NCBI GenBank assembly: GCA_035760845.1
Contig: DASTSD010000036.1
Location: 1 to 24,456, forward strand
DNA length: 24,456 nt
Source of the DNA: Candidatus Saccharimonadales bacterium
GTDB lineage: Bacteria > Patescibacteriota > Saccharimonadia > Saccharimonadales > Saccharimonadaceae
Direction: 5' to 3'
Positions 353 through 12,438 of this stretch are shown here, one piece after another (the first letter of the stretch is position 1; the number at the start of each line of letters is the position of its first letter). A model generated the notes under the pieces. It was given only the letters and a program-made list of their open reading frames with translations, did no database searches and was not told the DNA's origin. A program made the translations under genes and the position numbers.

Positions 353-408
353 AACTGGCCTAGCCAGACACGTTCGCCATAGTGGCGGGCAGAAAGGAGC
401 TTAAAAGC

Positions 409-2187
409 ATGAGCCAAGAAAAAGTACTTGTTGTCTCTGACTCGATTACTGTTGGCGAACTGGCCGAAACGCTCAATTTGCCCGTCACTACTTTGATTGG
501 GGAGTTGTTCAAGAACGGTATCGTCGCGACAATTAACCAACGAATTGATTTTGAGACCGCAACAATTATCGTCGAGGAGCTCGGCCTGGATGTCACGCTG
601 GAAAAGCGTGAAGCCAGCGCCCAGGCGCCCGAACGAAAGGTCCATCAGCTCAGCGACAAGGCGGTTGAACGGCCACCGATCGTCGCTGTCATGGGCCACG
701 TCGACCACGGTAAAACCAGCCTGCTCGACGCTATTCTTGATACCAAGACGACCGAGGGCGAGGCCGGCGGTATTACCCAGCACATCAGCGCCTACCAGAC
801 GATCCGGAACGATCGTTCTATAACACTGCTCGATACGCCGGGCCACGAGGCGTTTGCCGCGCTGAGACAGCACGGTGCGACCCTTACCGACGTCGTTATT
901 ATCGTGGTGGCGGCCGACGATGGCGTGAAACCGCAAACGATCGAGGCGATCCGCTTCGCGCGTGACGCCAACGCCAAGATGGTCGTTGCTATCAACAAAA
1001 TGGACAAAGACACGGCAAATCCCGGCCTTGTAAAGGGTCAGCTGGCCGAACAACAGGTTATTTCGGACGACAAGACCTGGGGTGGCGACACGCCAATGGT
1101 CGAGGTAAGCGCCAAGACGGGCCAGGGAATCGACAAACTGCTCGATACCGTACTGCTTGTTGCCGACCTCGAGGAGCTCAAGGCTGATATCGATGTTCCG
1201 GCCGAAGGCCTCGTGATCGAATCGCACATGGAAACTGGCCGCGGTGCCGTGGTTGGGCTGTTGGTCCAGCAGGGCAAGCTAAAACCCGGTCACTTCCTGG
1301 TGGCTGGCACGGCATATGGCAAGGTCCGTACGCTACTCGACTTCAAGGGCAAGGCGCTCAAAGAAGCCGGTCCTTCGACGCCTGTTACCGTTACCGGCTT
1401 CAAGGAATTGCCGCAATTCGGTGATATCTTTACTATCGTCAAAAGCGAAAAAGAAGCCCGCCAGACGACCGAGCGTGCTCGTATCGAACGCGAAAAGAGC
1501 GCTGCGACGACGAACGTCACTGGTGCCGACCTTCTTAAAATGATGAACCAAAAACACGAATCACAAGACGTGAACGTGATCGTAAAAGCCGACGTGCAAG
1601 GTTCGCTTACCTCTGTTATGGACAGCCTCCGCTTGGTAGATACCGGCGGTGAGGTGACGCTCCGTATCATCGGTAGCGGCGTAGGCAACATTTCGGAAAG
1701 CGATATTCGCTTGGCCGAAAGCAGCAACGCTATCATTTACGGCTTTAACGTCGAACTTCCACCTGCCGTCAAGCGTCTCGCGATGCGCGACAAGGTGCAG
1801 GTGCGCAACTTCCGCGTGATTTACGAACTGCTCGATGACGCCCGCCAGTCTATGGAGGCGCTACTTGCTCCAGAGGTAGTCGAAACCGAAATCGGTACAC
1901 TGACTATCAAGGGTGTCTTTAGGACCATGAAAGACCAAGTTATCGCCGGTGGTGAGATTACCAGTGGCAAAGCGATGCCGAACATCCTGGCCCGCGTCAA
2001 ACGCGGCGACGAACAAATCGCCGAAGTCGAAGTCATAAGCGTCCAGCGCCAACAGCAGGAAGCCAAAGAAGTCTTCGAGGGCGAAATGTGTGGCCTCTCA
2101 CTCAAGACCGAAAAGAAGCTCCTTATCGAAGAAGGCGACAAGCTCGAGTTCTTTACCCGTGAGCTCGTCAAGCGCACGCTCTCATAG
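409..2187 (+). CDS. infB: Translation initiation factor IF-2 (short N-terminus)
   Basis: [24 protein letters not shown] GTPase motifs; KADVQGS; ATG 409 preferred over GTG 382 because AAGGAG RBS lies at 394-399. Confidence 0.97.
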
Positions 2188-2198
2188 CCATAAGCATA

Positions 2199-2228
2199 TT
2201 GACAAAACCGCCCTTTTGGTGTAATAAT
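2199..2228 (+). promoter_or_regulatory. Putative sigma70 promoter for kinase gene
   Basis: TTGACA 2199-2204, then TG-T-AATAAT 2220-2228 in an AT-rich intergenic region. Confidence 0.55.
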
Positions 2229-2263
2229 TGTAGTAAATTACAATCAAAAACAAAAAGGGCATC

Positions 2264-3589
2264 ATGCAAAAAGAAACAGAGCAGAAACAAGACCAGCGCG
2301 AACGCGAAAAAAAGTTATTCGATAGTGCTATTGGTGACGCCTTAAGCGGTTACGCAAAGGATGGCGGTGACTGGGAAAAAGCGAAATGGGTCTTTGAAGA
2401 TGCGATCGAAAAAGGCATGCGCGTCGACGGCGCGCTCTATGTTGCCCTTGATGATATCCGCGAAGGCCATGAAGGCACACCTGAAGAGGCTGCCCGGCGT
2501 TTTTGGGAGAAGTTTCCCCTGGATAAAGCTATTGGCAGCGCCCTTACCGGCTATGCTAAAGATGGTGGCAGCTGGGAGCTGGCAAAATGGACGTTTAACA
2601 ATGCCCTGGAGGAGAAGACGGCTTTCTTGGACGTCGCGCTTGATAAGGCACTCGACGCTGCCCATGTAGGCGCTGAAACCACCAAAGAGGTAGCTGCCCG
2701 GAAGTTCTGGCGCGAACTTCACCCGTCATTCGTCGAAGCCGATATGGCAGAAGCCGACTTGGGTGATGGCGTGGAACTAGGTGAGCTGATTCACCGGCCG
2801 GACTGGAAAGGCCAAGCGGCAGGGACATTCGAGGGTGAAAAAGACGGACAGCCACTTATCGTTAAGCAGGGAATCGACGAGGAAGTTGGATACGAGCGCA
2901 GTATTCTGGCCGCCGTTGACTATCCGGGGATTCCAAAAGTACTCAGCTACACGCAAAAAAGCGATGCTCTTGACGGCTTGTCGCGCCTAGCGATGGAAAA
3001 GCTGCCCGGACGCTCACTAAAAGATCGCGTCGAAGTGAATGATCGCTGGGAGAGCAAGCCCATCGCTCCAGAGGCGGCAGTAGCAATTACCGACGGCGTG
3101 GCGGGCTGTTTTGACGCCTTGAACAAGGCGGGATATGTATACCGCGACCTGACGCTCGACCACGTGCTTGTCGATGAAGAAGGCGGCAAATATAAAGTAG
3201 GGCTAATCGACGTCGAAGCGAGCGAGCGCAAGGGTGCCGACGGCGTGGCGGAGATCGCCAACAGCGACCAAAAGCGTGGGACATGGGAGACCATGTCACC
3301 CGAAGAATTCGGTGACAATCCTAAGGTCGACGAACGCAGCAGTGTTTACTCGCTTAGCTGCCTGCTGAACCAACTGGTAGCAGGGGAATCGCCCTTTCAT
3401 GTGCCATATGAGGTCAGTGACGACGTAGGTGCCCGCCTTCGTTTTACGGAGTTCCTGCATAAGCGCGGCCCAAGCGTCCAAACCGAAGGCAAACTCGGCG
3501 AAGTAATCCGCACCGGTCTGCACCCCGACCCCGAGAAGCGCTATCAAACGATCCGCGACTTCAGGGAAGCGTTGGCAGCTGCTCTCTAG
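2264..3589 (+). CDS. Hanks-type Ser/Thr protein kinase-like protein with N-terminal 67-aa tandem repeat; atypical motifs, possible pseudokinase
   Basis: LIVK...YE, MEKLPG, VYRDLTLDHVLV, LIDVE, GTWETMSPE, SSVYSL, GESPF, PEKRYQT match subdomains II-XI in order. Confidence 0.85.
   Translation: MQKETEQKQDQREREKKLFDSAIGDALSGYAKDGGDWEKAKWVFEDAIEKGMRVDGALYVALDDIREGHEGTPEEAARRFWEKFPLDKAIGSALTGYAKDGGSWELAKWTFNNALEEKTAFLDVALDKALDAAHVGAETTKEVAARKFWRELHPSFVEADMAEADLGDGVELGELIHRPDWKGQAAGTFEGEKDGQPLIVKQGIDEEVGYERSILAAVDYPGIPKVLSYTQKSDALDGLSRLAMEKLPGRSLKDRVEVNDRWESKPIAPEAAVAITDGVAGCFDALNKAGYVYRDLTLDHVLVDEEGGKYKVGLIDVEASERKGADGVAEIANSDQKRGTWETMSPEEFGDNPKVDERSSVYSLSCLLNQLVAGESPFHVPYEVSDDVGARLRFTEFLHKRGPSVQTEGKLGEVIRTGLHPDPEKRYQTIRDFREALAAAL
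2327..2722 (+). repeat. Two tandem ~67-aa (201-nt period) repeats in the kinase N-terminus
   Basis: AIGDALSGYAKDGGDWEKAKWVF...EAARRFWEKF vs AIGSALTGYAKDGGSWELAKWTF...VAARKFWREL; GCTATTGG at 2327 and 2528. Confidence 0.95.
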
Positions 3590-3668
3590 GCCGTTTCAGC
3601 GCTATTTTTCGTCCTTTTCTATTGTTGTATTTCTTATGCTTTTTGTAGTATAATTTAAGTGGTACAAG

Positions 3669-3698
3669 TTGACAAAAACATAAAAAATATGGTAAAAT
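3669..3698 (+). promoter_or_regulatory. Near-consensus sigma70 promoter with extended -10 (possible second promoter TTGTAT 3625-3630 / TATAAT 3649-3654 upstream)
   Basis: TTGACA 3669-3674, 18-nt spacer, TGgTAAAAT 3690-3698; AAGGA RBS before ATG 3715. Confidence 0.75.
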
Positions 3699-3714
3699 AG
3701 TTAAAAGGACTCAT

Positions 3715-4044
3715 ATGGCTGGAGACGAGCTGGACCAATTCATAAATGAGATGCTGGACGCTAAAAAGCTATCTGGCGTTACTGAGGATGTCCGGGCGCA
3801 GCTGGTGAGCGATCTCAAGCAGCGCTTGCTGGACCAAATCAACAAGGCGCTCATTGACGCCCTGCCAGATGAGAAAATGGATGAATTCGAGCGCCTGCTC
3901 GATGACGAGTCTCTTACGGACGAACAAGTCCAGCAGTTTATTGTGAACTCAGGAGTTGACGTCAAGAAAGTAACGACCGTAACCATGCTTCGTTTTTATG
4001 ATTTATACGTAACACCGCCCGTTGCCGGAGGTGAGGGGGCCTAA
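3715..4044 (+). CDS. Small acidic helical protein, DUF5663-like
   Basis: 109 aa; LKQRLLDQINKALIDALPDEKMDEFERLLD resembles the LELRVGVRLSDGLSDEQLKEFESFVD core of 8588-9031; family assigned from recollection. Confidence 0.6.
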   Translation: MAGDELDQFINEMLDAKKLSGVTEDVRAQLVSDLKQRLLDQINKALIDALPDEKMDEFERLLDDESLTDEQVQQFIVNSGVDVKKVTTVTMLRFYDLYVTPPVAGGEGA

Positions 4045-4045
4045 C

Positions 4046-7000
4046 GTGGCCGAAACCCTTACTCGCACCCCCGACACAGCCGCCGAGCCGACGCGGCTTC
4101 ATTTGGTTTCTGTCGATCAGTCGTATGACGCACACCAGGCCGCACGCGATGCCGCCAATGAGCGGCTGACCGAGGAGCTTAATGAAGGCGGTCGTTTCAA
4201 GCGCATGCTCAAAAGCGTTTGGAAGGGTGGCGCGCTGCGTGAATACTACCAGCACAAATACACGCGCGAAGCCCAGGCGAATATTGAAGCAACAGGCAAC
4301 GTGCTACTCTACCAGGCGAGCACCGAGCAGTCGCAACGCGCACGCTGGGCGACGATCGACCGGTTCTTGAACGAAAACGACGAGGTCATTCACACCTCGG
4401 CGGGCGAGTCGCGTGAAGAAATTGCCTCTGATGCAGAGCTCAATCAGGAGGTTAAAGAACTTATTCGCCGCAATGTCGAAGGCGATCTCAGCGACGAGGC
4501 TATGGTCGAGGAAAAGGCCCGGCTGCTCGCCGCGTATCACGAAGCTCGCGGCGACCAGGCATTCGGCCGCGGTGTCGTGCAAGTAGACAACATGGTAGAA
4601 ATCGCGGCTGCCGTTAAGGGTGCCGTCGACCACGGCGAAAGCCTCGATGCCGTACTTGCCAACATGAAAATCAGCATGGGTGAAGCCCGTTCTGGCGTTC
4701 GCACCGAGGCTCGCTACAACAAGGTCGAGAAAATTGCCGACAAGCTCAGCCGTTCTCGCCTTGGCTCGCTGGTTGGCCCGGAGACCGTCGCGACAGCCAC
4801 GACGCTTGCTGCCAGCCTTTTGCGCTTCGGTAGCCACTCGGTCGTCGGCGCCGCTACCAAGACGATCGCACCTGGTATAGCTGCCGGTGCATGGGCGGGA
4901 CTGCGCGAAAACAAGCGTATGAAAGACGAGCGTGCGCAACATCTGCGCGAACGCGCCCAGGGCAAGGAAATCCAGGCCGGCTCGCGCCGTCGCGAACAGC
5001 TGGAAGAGACGCGCTATGAAACGGCGGCAGCCACCGATTTGACAGACATGCTCCGCCAGCACTTTGGCGAAGAAGCCGATTTTACCGCGTCAAAAGATGC
5101 TTACGAAGCGGCGATGGCCGCGCTGAGTGCCGTCGAGACGCGAATCTCGCTTTCGGACGAACGTAAGCTGGACCTTATCTCGTTTTCTGATGCCGGCATG
5201 GTCGAAGAGGAGCGGTTTGCTCTCGACCTTGCCCGGGCAGAGGCAAAAGTCGCCGCCCGCAACCGCTTGACCGACGACGTTCGCCGGGCGCTAGGCGTCG
5301 ACGCCGACCAAAGCCTTGAGGACATGATTAGCGAACGCTCCGAAGCGTTCCTTGAGTCCGTCGAAACCGATTTGTCGCAAAAAGACAAGGTATTCAAGCG
5401 CCTGAAGCGCCGCGAAGTAGCCAAGGCCGCCGCGAAAGGTGCGGTTATCGGGCTGGCCTTCGGGGCGATCACGCAGGAGGGTATTGCCGCACTATCCGAT
5501 ACTCGCCAAGGACTTATCGAGCAGGCGTGGGGTGCTACCGACCAGCCGTACGAGGGGACGATGCACCAGACGCTGCTGCATGGCCTGGTGCATGGTTCGG
5601 ACGGTGGTAACTTTACCGAGCTTCATCACGAACCTTCTGGTGACTATACGTCGCATGCTATCGGCGAGCACGGGACGATCTCGGTTTCGAGCGACCAGTC
5701 ACTCACCGAGAACGCCGACGGAACGCTCCTCCTCCGTGACCACAATGGCAATACCATCGCCGATAATCTGACAACCAATCGGGACGGTAGCCTGACAGCT
5801 GAGTCACTACAGCGCCTTAACGACAGCGGCTCGCATGTCGAGAATCTTTCGCACACGGTCGATCTTCCGCCGAAAGTCGAGACCCACCAGGGTTCGCTGA
5901 GCGAATACATGGATGCTCACAAGTCAGAAACGACCCATGTTTCGCGCGATTATTGGTACGATAACAACACCGAAAAGTTCGACAAGAACGAGCTAGGTCT
6001 TTGGTGGGGAGGTGAGAATAACAACGGCCTGACCGGGGATGGCGGATATCAATTTGATATCTCGCATATGACGCAGGGCGGCTCTTCGCACGACGGCCAA
6101 AACTTGGCATGGCAAGAAGCTGCGCGCCGGGGTGAACTCAAGCTGGCGATATCTGCCTCTGGCAATACGCAGACGCAAGTCTTTATGATTGATATCAACC
6201 CTGACGGTACGGCGACGATTCCGAAAGACAGCCCGGCTGCACAGTTCTTTAGTGAGCGCGGCGGCCAGGCGTCGTTTGATGGCAAGTATGCCGAGGTAGT
6301 CCAGACGACCAAGCCCGACGCTGACGGCGTAACGCACATCCGCCCGCTCGCGACGGAGGTCGGTAACGATACCGCGCGCACCGGTGATTTCCCGATTACC
6401 AAAGAAGTACCGGTTAAAGAATTCCGCCCTGAATACAAAATTACCAGTAATGGTTACGATACTCAGGAAGGTCAACCGACGTTCACCGAAATGGCGCCGG
6501 TTATTCCGCTTGTTCCGCGTAGGGCGCTGGAAGTTGTCCAGCGGGTTGAGCGCCCTGGCTACTATTACGGCTACGATTCCAGCCCTGAGCGCCTGCGTCG
6601 TTTCCGCAAAGAAGAGTGTTCGCCGCGCCTTAACCGCGATCCTAAAGCGCGTCTTAATCCCCGCGAAGAACTTGATTGGCACCGTGGTGAAATCCGCCGC
6701 AGGGCTGGTGCTGACTACGCCGATGGCGTCGACAGGGCGATCGATGATTCGCCAGAGCTTAGGAGCCTTCCTGCTGACACGAAGGCTATCGTGACGATTC
6801 CGATTGCCGCTGCCTCTGAGAGCGACAACATTTATCGCACGCTGGCATCATACGCGGGCCAGGACGCTGAGCTTGATCGTACGACGATCCTGCTTCACGT
6901 CAACTGGTTCGATAGTGCCGAGGGCGATCCCGCAAAAGCAGCGAGCATCCAAAAGACTTGGGACGAGATTGAGCGCGCCCGACGCGATTTCCCTCAGCTA

Positions 7001-8119
7001 AGGATCGCCACGATGAAGTCGGTCTGGGAAGAGGCAAAGAAGCGAAGCGGCGAATACGGTGACGGTATTGCCGGTCACATGGCTCGAAAGATGTACGACA
7101 CGGCGCTCATGAGCGTCCAGCGCGCCATGGCTGAAGGCCGGATGGACGACGACCACGAGGTGTTACTGATCCGCAACGACTCCGACGCGCAGGGTATCCG
7201 CCGTACGTACCTGCAGAATATGATCAAGAGCTTTGAGCAGCACCCGGAAAACGACGTGTTTACGGGCGCGATACGCTGGGGAACCGAGCGTCACACCGAT
7301 CTGCCGGGCTTTGCATTCGTTTCTAACTTCCGTGAGGTGATGCACATCGCGACCAAGCGGCGCGGCGTCAATGTTTGGCCGCCAACGGTGGGTATTAACA
7401 CGGCTGTCCGCATGTCGACGTTCGCTGCCGTCAACGGTATCGGCTACGATCCTAAGCGAACGGGCATCGGCACCGACGATTACAACATCGGCGGCCGCAT
7501 AAAAGACGCCCGTCAGATTGACGTATGGCGTGCCCGTGCGATGCGTCACTTCTGGAACCTTCGCTCTAATTCGGGCCGTACGCCTAACACTTATGGCTAT
7601 GGCTACCCAGCGGAAATGACACATGAGGACTACTCGTATCACCGCCATGTCGGCGGCGCTGATATCGATACGGCGCCTGACCGCCTTGAAAAAGCTTACT
7701 TGGCAGGAATTCCGATTACCCGTGCATGGGACAACTGGGGCAACCAGCTTCGTGACGAAGGCCTTGTCCGTGGTGCGACGGAGAATCTTCGCAGCAACCC
7801 AGGCGAAGTCATTTCACGCGTCGAAGCTGATATGAGCGCGTCGTTCACCGAGCGCTTCCACGACCGCGCGCATGTACGCGCCGGGCTGGCCGCCGTCTTA
7901 CCAACAAGTATTGGTGGTCGTCCTGCATACACTATTACTCGTACGAGCGGGGGAATGGTGTTCAGGTTTACGCCTGAAGGCCGGGCTTGGTTCGTGAACC
8001 GGCTACAACGCGACTCAAAGGGCCGGTATGATCCTATTGGCCGGCGCGTAAGGCGCAAGCTGTACCACGAGACGAATGGTGGCCGCGCACCGCGCACGAG
8101 CCAGCCATTGATGGTCTAG
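4046..8119 (+). CDS. Giant (~1,357 aa) multidomain protein: helical N-terminus, two Gly/Ala-rich hydrophobic segments, beta-rich middle region, C-terminal GT-A/GT2-like glycosyltransferase domain
   Basis: Long ORF; GTG 4046 lies 1 nt after upstream TAA with GGAGGTGAGG RBS; IVTIPIAAASESDNIYRTL, LLIRNDSD (DxD 7178-7186), VFTG, GINTAVR, GTDDYNIGGRI fit GT-A motif order. Confidence 0.75.
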   Translation: MAETLTRTPDTAAEPTRLHLVSVDQSYDAHQAARDAANERLTEELNEGGRFKRMLKSVWKGGALREYYQHKYTREAQANIEATGNVLLYQASTEQSQRARWATIDRFLNENDEVIHTSAGESREEIASDAELNQEVKELIRRNVEGDLSDEAMVEEKARLLAAYHEARGDQAFGRGVVQVDNMVEIAAAVKGAVDHGESLDAVLANMKISMGEARSGVRTEARYNKVEKIADKLSRSRLGSLVGPETVATATTLAASLLRFGSHSVVGAATKTIAPGIAAGAWAGLRENKRMKDERAQHLRERAQGKEIQAGSRRREQLEETRYETAAATDLTDMLRQHFGEEADFTASKDAYEAAMAALSAVETRISLSDERKLDLISFSDAGMVEEERFALDLARAEAKVAARNRLTDDVRRALGVDADQSLEDMISERSEAFLESVETDLSQKDKVFKRLKRREVAKAAAKGAVIGLAFGAITQEGIAALSDTRQGLIEQAWGATDQPYEGTMHQTLLHGLVHGSDGGNFTELHHEPSGDYTSHAIGEHGTISVSSDQSLTENADGTLLLRDHNGNTIADNLTTNRDGSLTAESLQRLNDSGSHVENLSHTVDLPPKVETHQGSLSEYMDAHKSETTHVSRDYWYDNNTEKFDKNELGLWWGGENNNGLTGDGGYQFDISHMTQGGSSHDGQNLAWQEAARRGELKLAISASGNTQTQVFMIDINPDGTATIPKDSPAAQFFSERGGQASFDGKYAEVVQTTKPDADGVTHIRPLATEVGNDTARTGDFPITKEVPVKEFRPEYKITSNGYDTQEGQPTFTEMAPVIPLVPRRALEVVQRVERPGYYYGYDSSPERLRRFRKEECSPRLNRDPKARLNPREELDWHRGEIRRRAGADYADGVDRAIDDSPELRSLPADTKAIVTIPIAAASESDNIYRTLASYAGQDAELDRTTILLHVNWFDSAEGDPAKAASIQKTWDEIERARRDFPQLRIATMKSVWEEAKKRSGEYGDGIAGHMARKMYDTALMSVQRAMAEGRMDDDHEVLLIRNDSDAQGIRRTYLQNMIKSFEQHPENDVFTGAIRWGTERHTDLPGFAFVSNFREVMHIATKRRGVNVWPPTVGINTAVRMSTFAAVNGIGYDPKRTGIGTDDYNIGGRIKDARQIDVWRARAMRHFWNLRSNSGRTPNTYGYGYPAEMTHEDYSYHRHVGGADIDTAPDRLEKAYLAGIPITRAWDNWGNQLRDEGLVRGATENLRSNPGEVISRVEADMSASFTERFHDRAHVRAGLAAVLPTSIGGRPAYTITRTSGGMVFRFTPEGRAWFVNRLQRDSKGRYDPIGRRVRRKLYHETNGGRAPRTSQPLMV

Positions 8120-8189
8120 TGAATGTTGTAAAATCGCAGCGTAGTGTATAATAAGCCATAAGCGTAAGTAATATAAAGAGGTGGGAACG

Positions 8190-8534
8190 GTGCAACAGCA
8201 AGATATCGACAAGTTAACGACACTTCGTCAGACAATCCTAGATAACCTAGTGCCGCTCATGGACAGCAATTCGCTGGAGCCTATGGACAGGTTCAGGCTG
8301 CTTTCGCGCCTGGCGCAGGCACAGGGCAAGCCGGAATTCTACGAGAAGGCATTTGAGGCGGCAAGCCGCCTTGAGGGTGACGACAAGCTGCAGTCATATA
8401 TGAGCCTCCTTGATGACGTTGACTACGAAATCGATACGGCCGTCAGCAGCACGGAAGGGGCGCCGCAAACGCAGCCTACCCCCCAACCACAACCAGCTCC
8501 GCAGCCTGCCCAGCAGGACAACTTCCAGCAGTAA
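8190..8534 (+). CDS. Small helical-repeat hypothetical protein with Pro/Gln-rich tail
   Basis: ORF 8181-8534; GAGGTG RBS at 8178-8183 favours GTG 8190; TATAAT at 8147-8152; tail PQTQPTPQPQPAPQPAQQ. Confidence 0.75.
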   Translation: MQQQDIDKLTTLRQTILDNLVPLMDSNSLEPMDRFRLLSRLAQAQGKPEFYEKAFEAASRLEGDDKLQSYMSLLDDVDYEIDTAVSSTEGAPQTQPTPQPQPAPQPAQQDNFQQ

Positions 8535-8587
8535 GTGGAAACTCCTCTTCTCGTGTAGTAAACTGGAGAGAGTAGAGGAGATAAATA

Positions 8588-9031
8588 ATGTTTCAATTAG
8601 ATGAACAGTTTCTCAAGGACCTGGGGTTGGATCAACTGCCGCAGGACCAAAAGCAGGCGTTTCTTGACCATATTTATAGCGAATTGGAGCTTCGAGTAGG
8701 AGTGCGACTTTCGGACGGGCTGAGCGATGAGCAGCTTAAGGAGTTCGAATCTTTCGTAGATCGTGACGACCAAAAGGTACAGGCGTGGATTGCCGCGCAT
8801 ACGCCCGACTACCGGAACGATCAAAGTTACCAGCAGCTCAAGCAAAATGCACCGCAAGGCGCAGACGAGCGGGCGCTGCTTGCAGAGTATGCATCGTTAA
8901 AGTGGCTGGGGCTTAACCGCCCTAACTACCGTGAAGTTGTCTCGCAGGTGCTTGAAGACCTCAAGCGAGAGATCATGAGCAATCGCGACACGCTCCTTAG
9001 CGACGACACCAATCAAGCGACGGCGGTATAG
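8588..9031 (+). CDS. DUF5663-family protein (CPR-associated)
   Basis: MFQLDEQFLKDLGLDQLPQDQKQAFLDHIYSELELRVGVRLSDGLSDEQLKEF is typical of the family as recalled; AGAGGAG RBS 8574-8580. Confidence 0.8.
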   Translation: MFQLDEQFLKDLGLDQLPQDQKQAFLDHIYSELELRVGVRLSDGLSDEQLKEFESFVDRDDQKVQAWIAAHTPDYRNDQSYQQLKQNAPQGADERALLAEYASLKWLGLNRPNYREVVSQVLEDLKREIMSNRDTLLSDDTNQATAV

Positions 9032-9906
9032 CCGCGCAAGAACGCAGCGGCATCCATGTGGCGGCCGCTTGGGGCGATCAGCTCGTCAACCGACAAATAG
9101 GCACCGTCTTGGCACAAAAGGTCGAGCGGTGTTTTTTGTTCGTGCGAGACGTGTGCTTTGGTGACGACGATAGGGTACTCGCCAATGACCACCTTGCTTT
9201 TAGGAAAACCGAGGTGGGCCCGGACGATGCGCTCGGCTTCAGTGGCGTTGAGGCTATCGAGCTGGAGGTCGGCATCGCTTTTTTGCAGGAGCTTGGAATA
9301 CGTCGCTTTGCTGTCGTCCTGCGGGGCAGGCAAGAGGGTGCCGTTCATGATTTCGGGCAGCGTCTCCAGTAGAAGATCGGTGCCAAGGATTGCGAGGTCT
9401 CGGTAAAGGTCGGCGCGGGTTTCGTTACCGTTAAGTGCGAACTCTTTGGCGGCAAAAACCGGGCCGGTGTCCATGCCGGCATCGATCTGCATGATTGATA
9501 CTCCGGTATGTGTGTCACCGTTCTTAATAGCGGACTCGATAGGGGTCGGGCCGCGGTACTTTGGCAGGAGCGACGGGTGGACGTTGATGATACCCGGCGT
9601 GAAAAGATCGATGGTACTCTGCGGAATAATCTTGCCGTAGCTCACCAGCACGCCGGTAACGGGGCCGAGCTTTTTGATGCCTTCGTTGATGTCGGCGACT
9701 TTCGTGGGCTGCCAAACGGTAATGTCGTGCTTCATGGCGAGCACTTTGACGCTTGGCATGACTAGCTGCTGGCCGCGGCCTTTTTTGCTGTCGGGTTTGG
9801 TAACGACGGCCGCGACGGCGTGGCCGGCCTCTATAAGGCCTTCAAGGACGGTGAGGCTAAAATCCTCAGTCCCAAAGAATACGATTGTTTCGGATGTGTT
9901 CGTCAT
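9013..9906 (-). CDS. fmt: Methionyl-tRNA formyltransferase
   Basis: IVFFGT, VVTKPD..GRG, VSYGKII, INVHPSLLPKYRGPTPIE, MDTG; real start is Met71 of track ORF (9906). Confidence 0.95.
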   Translation of the reverse strand: MTNTSETIVFFGTEDFSLTVLEGLIEAGHAVAAVVTKPDSKKGRGQQLVMPSVKVLAMKHDITVWQPTKVADINEGIKKLGPVTGVLVSYGKIIPQSTIDLFTPGIINVHPSLLPKYRGPTPIESAIKNGDTHTGVSIMQIDAGMDTGPVFAAKEFALNGNETRADLYRDLAILGTDLLLETLPEIMNGTLLPAPQDDSKATYSKLLQKSDADLQLDSLNATEAERIVRAHLGFPKSKVVIGEYPIVVTKAHVSHEQKTPLDLLCQDGAYLSVDELIAPSGRHMDAAAFLRGYTAVA

Positions 9907-10441
9907 AGTCGAGTGGTTGGAGCTCGCCTTTCTCGTCGAGCGTGTAAAAAGCTTTCGTCTCGTCTTTGATGTGATCGATAAAAACGATGCCGTTAGTGTG
10001 GTCGATTTCGTGCTGGATGACGCGGGCGAGGAAACCTTCGGCCTTGAAGCGGACCTCGTTGCCTTCGACGTCGAGGGCGCGGACGCGGATTTTTGAGTGG
10101 CGCGGAACGAGGCCATAGATGTTATTTACACTGAGGCAGCCTTCGTAGTCGCTGATGATCTCGCCTTCGTATTTGACGATTTCCGGGTTGATAAGCGCGG
10201 TGAAGTCGCGGGTTGCCTTGTCTTCGAAGTCGCTGCGAACGATAACGACGCGTTCGAGCTTGTCGATCTGGACGGCGGCAAGCGCGGCACTGATTTCGTG
10301 CGGGCGCGAATCCTCCCAGTCGAGCGATGCGCTGGTCATGTCGGCGATAAGCTGGTTGATGTCACTGGTGATATCACGGACCTTCGCTGATTTGTCACGA
10401 AGGTGAGGGTTGGGCAAAGTAATGATGTTTTCTTTTTTCAT
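9866..10441 (-). CDS. def: Peptide deformylase
   Basis: LAAVQI, EGCLS, QHEIDHTNG metal-binding motifs; adjacent to fmt. Confidence 0.95.
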   Translation of the reverse strand: MKKENIITLPNPHLRDKSAKVRDITSDINQLIADMTSASLDWEDSRPHEISAALAAVQIDKLERVVIVRSDFEDKATRDFTALINPEIVKYEGEIISDYEGCLSVNNIYGLVPRHSKIRVRALDVEGNEVRFKAEGFLARVIQHEIDHTNGIVFIDHIKDETKAFYTLDEKGELQPLDYDEHIRNNRILWD

Positions 10442-10449
10442 TACGGTCT

Positions 10450-10458
10450 ATTATAACA
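10450..10458 (-). promoter_or_regulatory. Extended -10 (TGtTATAAT) 8 nt upstream of def ATG; leaderless-type
   Basis: Reverse complement reads TGTTATAAT-agaccgta-ATG, with no SD. Confidence 0.65.
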
Positions 10459-10471
10459 GATTGAAAACGAT

Positions 10472-12409
10472 CTAGAGCAGGCTGATCGGGTCGAGTTCGA
10501 ATTGCCAATTCGCGGGTGGCAGGTGTCCAAGCGCTGCGCTTAGGCGAGCACGTTTTGGAGATTTGAGGACGAGTTGCCAGCGGTAGGTGTCGTGCTGGCG
10601 CTCGTAAAATGCCGGCGTAGGGCCAAGGAGCTGTACGTCGGGCAGTTCACGGCGCAGGACGGCGGCGAGTTTTTGGGCGTTCCGTATGGCTGCGGCCTCG
10701 GTTTTATACACGCAGGTGAGCTTGAGGAGGTACGAAAAGGGAGGGAAGCCGCCGCGTTTTCGCTCAAGGAGGGCGGTCTGGTAAAACCCGGCGTAATCCT
10801 GCGCCAGGCCGCTTACGACGGCAGGGTGGGTGGGCTGGTAGCTCTGCACGATGACACTCGTTTCGTGGTGGGAGCGCCCTACGCGCCCGACCACCTGCGC
10901 GAGCAGCTGGAAGGTCCGTTCGCTCGAGCCGTAATCGGGGAGGCTAAGCCCGGCATCCGCCTGAATAACCCCAACGCTGCGGAGCTTGGGAAGGTCGAGG
11001 CCTTTTGCGATTACCTGCGTACCAACAATAAGGTCGATCGTACCTTCGTAGAGTTCTTTGTAGCGTTCCTCGACCGACTCGCCTGTCTCGTTGTCGCCGT
11101 CAAAGCGGGCGATGTTTTTATTCGGAAAGAGCTTGCGGAGTTCCGACTCGATCAGTTTGGTGCCGATACCTTTATGGATGATTTCGGCCGAACCGCATTC
11201 AGGACAGCTGGTCGGCACTTTTTCGCTGGTGCCGCAAATGTGGCATTCCAGCCGGTGCTTGTCGGCATGCAGGGTAAACGGTACGAAGCAGCGCGGGCAA
11301 ATGGCCGACCAGCCACAGTTCTCGCAGAGCGTGGTGCTGGCGCTGCCGCGGCGGTTATGGAAAATCAGCGCCTGGTTGCCACTGGCAAATGTTTGCTCCA
11401 GCTGGGCAAGCAGCTGGTCCGAGAGAAAGCGGTGCCGCTTGAAGTGCGTTCGCTTGGTCATGTCCACGAGTGTGATATTGGGCGGCGTCGTATCGCTGCG
11501 GGCACGTCGGTTCATGGCAATGATCGGCCGGTTGGACTGCTCGAACAAATAATAGTCGGCAATCGATGGCGTGGCGCTGCCGAGGACGACTTTCGCTTCG
11601 TGCCCTGAGGCAAGGATGCTCGCAGCGCGCAGGGCAGAGTAGCGCGGCGACTGTTCCTGTTTGAAGCTCGGCTCGTGCGCCTCGTCGATGACGATCAGCC
11701 CTACGGAACCCAGGGGCGTAAAGAGCGCAGAGCGCGGGCCAATGACAAGGCGCGGCTGGGTGCTTGCCAGGGCGTCTTGCCAGGCCTTGTGGCGCTGGGC
11801 TTCGGTCTGGCGCGAGTGAACAAGAATGATGTCCTCGAAATGTTCCGAGAATTCGTCGACCACCTGCGAGGTAAGGGCGATCTCGGGAACGAGGATAATG
11901 GCCGACTTGCCGCTGTCCAACGTTTGCTTGGCGAGCTCCATGTAGACGGCGGTTTTGCCCGAGCCGGTAATACCGTGGAGGAGGGCGGAGCCAGGCGACA
12001 TTTGCTGGACCACCGCTACGGCACGAAGCTGGTCTTTGTTGAGCACATTTTTTGTTCGATCGCGGAGCTTTTCTCGGGTAGGCGGCACGCTGGCGCGACG
12101 TTTTTTTTGCAGGCCGCGCGGCAAGATGGTTTGCAGAACGGTGGCTAGGTGCGTGGCGTAGTACATGCCCATCCATAGTGCGAGACGAACGAGCGGCTCG
12201 GGGAGCGGCGGCTCGTCAATGAGGCTTGTGATAGGTTTAGTGGCGTACTCGGGCTGCTTGACGTTTTTTGTCACGATGCCTACGAGGATCTTTTTGCCGA
12301 CCTCAACCATCACCAGCTGGCCGACGTGGAGCGGCTCTTCGGACGAATACGTAAACACGCCGCTGTTGGCGCGAATAATCTGCGTCGGAGCCACCTCATA
12401 ATAGTGCAT
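10472..12409 (-). CDS. priA: Primosomal protein N' (replication restart helicase)
   Basis: GITGSGKT, LVPEIALT, IDEAHE, SATPS, CxxC..CxxC..CHIC..CPEC Zn motifs, GTQVIAKGLD, QVVGRVGR. Confidence 0.97.
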   Translation of the reverse strand: MHYYEVAPTQIIRANSGVFTYSSEEPLHVGQLVMVEVGKKILVGIVTKNVKQPEYATKPITSLIDEPPLPEPLVRLALWMGMYYATHLATVLQTILPRGLQKKRRASVPPTREKLRDRTKNVLNKDQLRAVAVVQQMSPGSALLHGITGSGKTAVYMELAKQTLDSGKSAIILVPEIALTSQVVDEFSEHFEDIILVHSRQTEAQRHKAWQDALASTQPRLVIGPRSALFTPLGSVGLIVIDEAHEPSFKQEQSPRYSALRAASILASGHEAKVVLGSATPSIADYYLFEQSNRPIIAMNRRARSDTTPPNITLVDMTKRTHFKRHRFLSDQLLAQLEQTFASGNQALIFHNRRGSASTTLCENCGWSAICPRCFVPFTLHADKHRLECHICGTSEKVPTSCPECGSAEIIHKGIGTKLIESELRKLFPNKNIARFDGDNETGESVEERYKELYEGTIDLIVGTQVIAKGLDLPKLRSVGVIQADAGLSLPDYGSSERTFQLLAQVVGRVGRSHHETSVIVQSYQPTHPAVVSGLAQDYAGFYQTALLERKRGGFPPFSYLLKLTCVYKTEAAAIRNAQKLAAVLRRELPDVQLLGPTPAFYERQHDTYRWQLVLKSPKRARLSAALGHLPPANWQFELDPISLL

Positions 12410-12438
12410 ATCTTACATTATACTGTTAAAATAAGCAT
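12410..12438. promoter_or_regulatory. Back-to-back divergent leaderless-type promoters (priA / PRTase)
   Basis: Minus strand TATAAT (12417-12422) 7 nt before priA ATG; plus strand TGtTAAAAT (12424-12432) 6 nt before ATG 12439. Confidence 0.7.

Follow-up and report, generated by a model that had tools for sequence, protein, structure and literature searches.

Polymorphic toxins such as CdiA-CT/CdiI, Rhs and the LXG proteins of the type VII secretion system (T7SS) combine a long conserved N-terminal region with a sharp C-terminal switch after a junction motif. Moreover, when the head is exchanged an adjacent small gene goes with it, a gene for a small helical protein lies upstream and the distribution of the systems is patchy. 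Here we describe a gene family that shares these features, starting from a 24,456-nt stretch (hereafter the window) of the genome of a Candidatus Saccharimonadales bacterium (contig DASTSD010000036.1, positions 1 to 24,456, forward strand; GCA_035760845.1, an 832-kb assembly in 153 contigs). The locus holds one copy of a two-gene module that spans the Patescibacteria: a small DUF5663-like gene followed by a gene for a giant protein (1357 residues here) in which a constant body of ~850 residues is joined to a replaceable enzyme head. Between close relatives the head and a small partner gene have been exchanged as one cassette at a junction motif, and an atypical kinase gene has been added upstream in a lineage-specific manner. 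Unlike polymorphic toxins, the family lacks any known domain for secretion or trafficking and is not recurrently linked to a secretion system, its heads are mostly of one glycosyltransferase (GT) fold, its body is without a detectable homologue in the PDB, and toxicity and immunity would be putative functions. How ultra-small epibionts manipulate their host bacteria is an open question, and we know of no identified effector of the Saccharibacteria. The literature that we searched held no paper mentioning DUF5663 or describing the giant family. As context only, the hosts of Saccharibacteria sense their epibionts through Ser/Thr-kinase signalling (PMC13622651), and the type IV secretion system of Saccharibacteria is essential, its substrates going unnamed in the paper that describes it (PMC10633639).

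For analysis the giant protein was split into an N module (residues 1-480) and an M module (481-850), together forming the body, and a C-terminal head (851-1357). The breakpoint between body and head is best seen in pairs of close relatives. Between the proteins P0042 and P0090, residues 1-890 are 93% identical and no similarity is seen beyond them, the break falling directly after the junction motif APVIP..SRR..E that closes the M module. Among 36 diverse members, whose alignment shows conservation over the full length of the protein, R825 of this motif is invariant and E829 nearly so. The loci of these two proteins, L054 and L080, share 87-90% of their DNA sequence across infB, the small gene with the body, and the DUF5663-fmt-def-priA flank; the dissimilar segments are the kinase gene, which only L054 carries, and the head with the next small gene. 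Position 8956 onward in L054 matches position 11680 onward in L080, and thus the second DUF5663 gene was kept when the head cassette was swapped. The head class of L080, the locus lacking the kinase, is unlike that of L054, although this is the one near-isogenic pair examined. Across the family, the identities of body and head are loosely coupled (r = 0.53), and in some pairs bodies that are 87-94% identical carry heads of 16-18% identity. The heads form 4-7 deep classes, of which that of the window is the commonest (132/207), and 7 of the 29 body clusters formed at ≥60% identity contain at least two head classes. The alternative head of the P0042/P0090 pair is still of the GT-A type (13% identity, hhalign probability 100%) and has the same motifs, kept in the divergent head class as EDAD and GED. 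The initial annotation of this stretch had named a constant N-terminus with a swapping C-terminal domain as the signature to look for; it is present when the family is taken as a whole, where breakpoints are sharp and the small downstream gene is swapped along with the head.

The 241 family members that exceed 700 residues include 208 with the N, M and C modules and 28 with N and M but no GT-A head. Among the variants, five bear a GT9 (GT-B type) head and others end in helical or low-complexity tails. The tails of headless members consist of helical repeats or low-complexity sequence and matched no Pfam family, and no informative domain was found in the N-terminal extensions of long members. 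Some complete proteins append a further domain: a calpain-like protease, YkuD, DUF362, a weak DnaJ-like domain or a HopA1-like domain (24.3 bits, cut-off 22.7).

The small gene that accompanies the head encodes a helical protein of 117 residues without a match to any Pfam or NCBIfam family. In 14 of 44 loci a member of its family follows the giant gene at a distance of 3-86 bp, and the gene replaced together with the head between L054 and L080 belongs to it. Three loci with class-3 heads have a convergent small gene instead. These genes are homologous to one another, and hhalign links them to the 117-aa family (probability 97.5%, E 6.5e-12) at ~20% identity. The partners of different head classes are thus homologues, yet only ~20% identical, so that the head and its small neighbour diverge and move together, with the DUF5663 genes staying with the constant parts. 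The 117-aa protein ends in a low-complexity Pro/Gln-rich tail (window 8440-8534: PQTQPTPQPQPAPQPAQQ), which was not seen in the three aligned class-3 partners.

Upstream of the giant gene, a small DUF5663-like gene is found at 20/20 Saccharimonadia loci and 11/12 loci of other classes, in nearly all cases directly adjacent. In the window its stop codon and the GTG start of the giant gene are separated by 1 base. The 109-aa protein of the window itself stays below the Pfam cut-off for DUF5663 (E 1.1e-3; 20.0 bits against 23.7), while its orthologues in L051 and L052 are on record as PF18908. A C-terminal F...Y(L/V) motif is conserved in this family of small proteins. The 147-aa product of the second DUF5663 gene, downstream of the partner gene, scores 71.2 bits against the same model. 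A third DUF5663-type gene is present on another contig of the window genome (C58:7078-7479, minus strand, E 1.4e-7).

Among 1.84 billion representatives, a profile search with the N and M modules recovered 1,455 clusters (50% identity, E ≤ 0.001). The giant protein, when searched against 5.8 billion proteins, gave 133 relatives at E ≤ 0.001; among the 120 matches listed, most are full-length and 30-87% identical, many cover 97-100% of the query, and all named relatives come from Saccharibacteria. The family was detected in 38 of the 301 Saccharimonadia species sampled (the window genome included), representing 23/161 genera and including 13/101 other genomes of the window's own taxonomic family. 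A phylum-wide sample of 401 genomes added 18 genomes of other classes. Given these counts, the family is accessory, patchily distributed and spans the Patescibacteria. The window genome contains a single copy, which is the second-longest open frame of the genome, and no other giant-family gene was detected in it. In many families of Saccharimonadia the pair occupies the same position, nusA-infB-[pair]-fmt-def-priA, and therefore synteny indicates that it is old at the infB-fmt site and not an insertion. A second tandem pair lies between the first pair and fmt in L033 (4828-8709, minus strand), where a DUF5663-like gene is followed by that for a 1175-aa protein with an N module and only a weak match to M.

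The closest described relatives of the head by fold are the GT-A enzymes of family GT2, including SpsA, TarS/TarP, PcManGT and the hyaluronan (HA), chitin and cellulose synthase domains. The AlphaFold2 (AF2) model of the head is of high quality (predicted local distance difference test score, pLDDT, 86; predicted template modelling score, pTM, 0.88), and Foldseek matched it to chitin and hyaluronan synthases, SpsA, K4CP, TarS and TarP with E values of 3e-7 to 1e-4. In the VIA comparison, chitin synthase, SpsA, hyaluronan synthase, K4CP, TarP and TarS gave Z scores of 16.3-15.2. The head shares with GT2 enzymes the GT-A fold (Z 15-16), a DxD motif ending a beta strand, a G-x-N...R segment and then an acidic 'ED/DD' at the position of the base. 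The window protein retains the corresponding motifs RNDSDA, GINTAVR and GTDDYN intact, and among the 36 diverse members D1045, D1047, G1116, N1118 and R1156 are invariant and D1145, within GTDDYN, is at least 90% conserved. However, the head differs from these enzymes in sitting behind an 850-residue body of unknown fold, in bearing an extra alpha/beta extension of ~150 residues, and in being matched by structure and not by a Pfam GT2 model above cut-off. Neither the whole giant protein nor any of its three parts gave a significant match in Pfam, NCBIfam or PDB sequence searches; no Pfam or NCBIfam GT2 model reached its cut-off on the window head, and relatives reached no more than 24.0 bits against a cut-off of 27 and 19.8 bits against one of 23.3. 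On the strength of the model, then, the label glycosyltransferase-like holds, and the head is a predicted GT2-like GT-A glycosyltransferase with complete catalytic motifs and an active-looking site.

The head had also been likened to the glycosyltransferase payloads of toxins. Large clostridial toxins, Legionella Lgt/SetA and NleB/SseK likewise pair a GT-A enzyme with hydrophobic helices that may insert into membranes, and would share with the giant protein the idea of a nucleotide-sugar-dependent enzyme acting in the cytoplasm of another cell. However, their folds are missing from the best 50 structural neighbours of the window head, the nearest of which are GT2 enzymes. Moreover, the domains are arranged the other way round, the enzyme being C-terminal, and the target here would be a bacterium. 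Stand-alone homologues of the head, 483-495 residues long, are encoded in other Saccharimonadia (L083:4708-6159, minus strand; L084:5127-6578, minus strand; L085:322-1809, plus strand). At two of these three loci a NUDIX hydrolase gene adjoins the head gene, which hints at a connection with a nucleotide-sugar or nucleotide-diphosphate substrate.

The AF2 model of the body is of moderate confidence (pLDDT 79) and gave no significant fold match in the PDB (Foldseek best E 0.16; VIA best Z 6.5, to short helices); within it, the beta sandwich at ~630-775 resembles FN3 domains weakly (VIA Z about 5.5). A search of the AlphaFold DB clusters with the body returned one uncharacterised protein, and an ESM Atlas feature search with the N module gave uninformative scores (≤0.76). 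Three hydrophobic helices, at residues 241-259, 266-284 and 458-476, are conserved across 236 family members. The window protein is basic before the first helix and after the second, and strongly basic before the third and acidic after it. Under the positive-inside rule, this charge distribution points to a hairpin and then an N-in/C-out span, so that the M module and the head would lie outside.

The kinase gene was compared with the Hanks-type kinases PknB and Stk1. It has the same fold above the Pfam cut-off (Pkinase, E 3.6e-12, 46.7 bits, cut-off 31.7), with the beta3 Lys (K201), the catalytic Asp (D295), the metal-binding Asp (D316) and the PE motif common to both. It differs from them in having Thr for the catalytic-loop Lys, His for Asn and DVE for DFG (YRDLTLDH in place of HRDLKxxN), so that the canonical motifs are absent, and the deviations behind the initial description as a degenerate Ser/Thr kinase are real. 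Also in contrast to the Hanks-type kinases, no transmembrane helix and no PASTA domain were found, nor was any export signal, and the protein begins with two 67-aa repeats (55% identical to each other, E 2e-21) that are unique to this very small family of six orthologue clusters and do not occur a second time in the window genome. The 6 orthologues, the most distant of them 45% identical, share the deviating motifs, and this speaks for function and against decay; orthologues and fused kinases alike keep K201 and D295. The window kinase is the sole Pkinase match in its genome.

Comparison with L052, whose giant protein is 75% identical to that of the window, delimits the kinase gene as an indel: the DNA is 78% identical up to position 2186 and again from 3646, and 70 bp replace the 1.46 kb between. 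L054 and L080 differ by an indel of the same sort. The kinase gene is found at the same site in L051, L055 and L054, which fall in two separate clades on the giant-protein tree, and is missing from all 20 species-representative loci searched; one homologue was located elsewhere. Therefore, of the three genes initially read as one block inserted after infB, only the kinase gene fits the description, as the pair is phylum-wide and ancestral at the site, keeping its position in many families of Saccharimonadia, and the kinase gene is optional. The proposed association of kinase and glycosyltransferase fared better, with kinase domains repeatedly joined to the giant family as separate genes or fused C-terminally behind the GT head, the latter in at least 7 family members and L074. 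Since neither the stand-alone nor the fused group resembles the other more than it does generic kinases, recruitment looks recurrent rather than inherited. The L074 protein (5094-12419, minus strand), from another Candidate Phyla Radiation (CPR) class, has 2442 residues and consists of the body, a GT-A head, a kinase domain and ~550 further residues.

All five genes, the single-base gap and both near-consensus promoters were found where they had initially been placed (Table 1). Each of the two promoter sites has 11/12 consensus matches plus an upstream TG, and the region contains 7 sigma-70-like sites compared with 3.6 +/- 1.6 in shuffled sequences.

Table 1. Positions of the module, its parts and its neighbours in the window
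Feature	Position	Strand	Remark
infB	382-2187	+	5' neighbour of module
Present/absent segment, kinase gene and its promoter	2187-3645	+	1.46 kb, blastn against L052
Sigma-70-like promoter 5' of kinase gene	2199-2228	+	TTGACA, 18-nt spacer, AATAAT; consensus match only
Kinase-like gene, 441 aa	2264-3589	+	Pfam Pkinase match
Kinase N-terminal repeats, 2 x 67 aa	about 2318-2722	+	
Kinase domain	about 2876-3547	+	K201 = beta3 Lys
Kinase YRDLTLDH (D295)	3140-3163	+	
Kinase DVE (D316)	3203-3223	+	
Sigma-70-like promoter 5' of small-gene/giant pair	3669-3698	+	TTGACA, 18-nt spacer, TAAAAT
Small acidic DUF5663-like gene, 109 aa	3715-4044	+	Stop TAA at 4042-4044
Giant gene, 1357 aa, GTG start	4046-8119	+	N, M and head modules
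N module, residues 1-480	4046-5485	+	Helical, three conserved hydrophobic helices
N-module hydrophobic helices	4781-4837, 4865-4903, 5432-5494	+	Hydropathy profile
M module, residues 481-850	5486-6595	+	Beta-rich; Ig/FN3-like sandwich ~630-775
Junction motif APVIPLVPRRALE closing M module	6494-6532	+	Consensus APVIP..SRR..E
Head, residues 851-1357	6596-8119	+	GT2-like GT-A glycosyltransferase (predicted)
Head DxD motif (RNDSDA)	7172-7189	+	
Head presumed catalytic-base motif GTDDYN	7469-7486	+	Base assigned by motif position, not superposition
117-aa gene	8181-8534	+	Helical protein, Pro/Gln-rich tail; head-associated partner
Second DUF5663 gene, 147 aa	8588-9031	+	PF18908, E 1.1e-19
fmt, def, priA	3' of second DUF5663 gene	-	

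We tentatively favour a reading in which the body displays or delivers the head at a cell-cell interface, most plausibly against a host molecule. The genetics of the family resemble those of polymorphic toxin/immunity systems, and the domains added to some members resemble effector repertoires. Under this scheme the body would sit in the membrane of the epibiont, with the DUF5663 protein as a cytoplasmic adaptor or chaperone, and would present or deliver the nucleotide-dependent head at the interface. The head might then glycosylate a target under diversifying selection, most plausibly a molecule of the host cell. The small partner could be a head-specific inhibitor, an immunity protein or a chaperone, and the kinase a second, optional enzyme of the same system, which in other members is fused behind the head. 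The effector cassette originally proposed is partly supported: the swapping and the kinase links speak for it, whereas the single inserted block and the likeness to toxin glycosyltransferases were not supported. The interest of the locus is that a large family, confined to the Patescibacteria as far as searched, behaves genetically like conflict systems, and that its head, partner, adaptor and kinase are concrete candidates with clear catalytic residues.

Several observations weigh against this reading. A signal peptide is missing, Pfam and structure searches of the body gave no known domain for secretion or trafficking, and a secretion-system neighbour is not recurrent among the loci examined. 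The description as membrane-inserting rests on the three conserved helices, whose mean Kyte-Doolittle hydropathy in the family is only moderate (1.2-1.6), making them borderline membrane spans. The toxin folds of typical polymorphic toxins are mixed, whereas here ~87% of the heads are GT-A domains with the same catalytic motifs. Moreover, head and architecture are fixed in the window's own clade, in which matches cover 97-100% of the query, so that the invariance initially set against an effector role applies to this clade but not to the wider family, where heads are swapped. The partner family was detected in no more than the 14 loci mentioned above. The predicted complex of the DUF5663-like protein with the body scored 0.31 against a mark of 0.32, which speaks neither for nor against binding. 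Lastly, a common origin of the stand-alone and fused kinases was not supported, reciprocal profiles giving them no better scores than generic kinases.

The most serious rival, which we consider possible though on the whole unlikely, is that the giant protein glycosylates the epibiont's own envelope, its body anchoring a cytoplasm-facing GT2 head at the cell's own membrane. The head would decorate a wall polymer, a lipid carrier or a surface protein, its swaps would amount to a serotype-like diversification of glycans driven by phages or by host recognition, and the small partner would be a specificity subunit, a chaperone or an acceptor. The closest folds are indeed those of envelope GT2 enzymes (TarS, TarP, RmlT, PcManGT, GtrB, ArnC and polysaccharide synthases), and nucleotide-sugar donors occur only in a cytoplasm. 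The gene is single-copy in the window genome and lies amid housekeeping genes, and the stand-alone head-like enzymes of ~490 residues exist beside NUDIX genes. Furthermore, most heads are glycosyltransferases, whether GT-A or GT9, a dominance that fits serotype-like diversification just as well and so adds to the points against the interface reading. However, the addition of kinase, calpain-like and HopA1-like domains would be odd for a glycan-decorating enzyme, a body of 850 residues far exceeds the need of an anchor, and the charges around the third helix suggest that the head is outside. Moreover, the family is missing from 263 of the 301 genomes searched and is therefore not core envelope machinery. 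If glycosylation of the envelope were nonetheless its role, the family would represent a new way to build and diversify envelope glycosyltransferases in a phylum whose envelope biology is scarcely characterised.

The interface reading may also be extended to a new effector system, in which a DUF5663-aided body would enter or cross the host envelope and bring exchangeable heads (glycosyltransferase, kinase, protease) into the host cell, the downstream protein would confer head-specific immunity and the kinase would be a second payload disturbing the Ser/Thr signalling of the host. This fuller version we regard as rather doubtful. It is improbable that the giant protein is instead an intracellular regulatory or scaffold enzyme that acts on proteins of the epibiont itself, glycosylating them and in some lineages phosphorylating them too, with the hydrophobic helices forming buried core helices or a peripheral membrane anchor. 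The lack of an export signal, the acidic and cytoplasmic-looking small partners and the occasional weak DnaJ-like and DUF362 additions would suit such an enzyme, but the patchiness and the exchange of head and partner as a cassette are hard to explain for a housekeeping regulator, and the YkuD domain that occurs as a head is normally extracytoplasmic. Least probable of all is the model as first formulated, of a recent three-gene insert whose kinase and GT payloads subvert PknA/PknB-type signalling of an actinobacterium: the kinase gene sits at the same site in two clades and is absent from L080 with its different head class, and host Actinobacteria do sense epibionts via Ser/Thr kinases (PMC13622651), but the pair is ancestral with only the kinase an indel, most loci of the same head class have no kinase, and the kinase has no export signal.

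At L061, a 914-aa VirD4/TraG-like coupling-protein gene (2858-5602, plus strand) lies directly upstream of a DUF5663/kinase-fused-giant pair on a metagenomic contig. Queried with this protein, each of the 38 family-bearing genomes gave 1-4 matches, mostly two. The two genes are adjacent in L061 only, the best matches elsewhere being on other contigs or, where both are on one contig, tens of kb from the giant gene, and a recurrent link to type IV secretion was therefore rejected. In the flank of the window, the longest fmt frame (367 aa, from 10116 on the minus strand; window 9013-10441) overlaps the def frame (9866-10441). As the fmt of relatives is ~296 aa long, the true fmt start is probably downstream of the first ATG.

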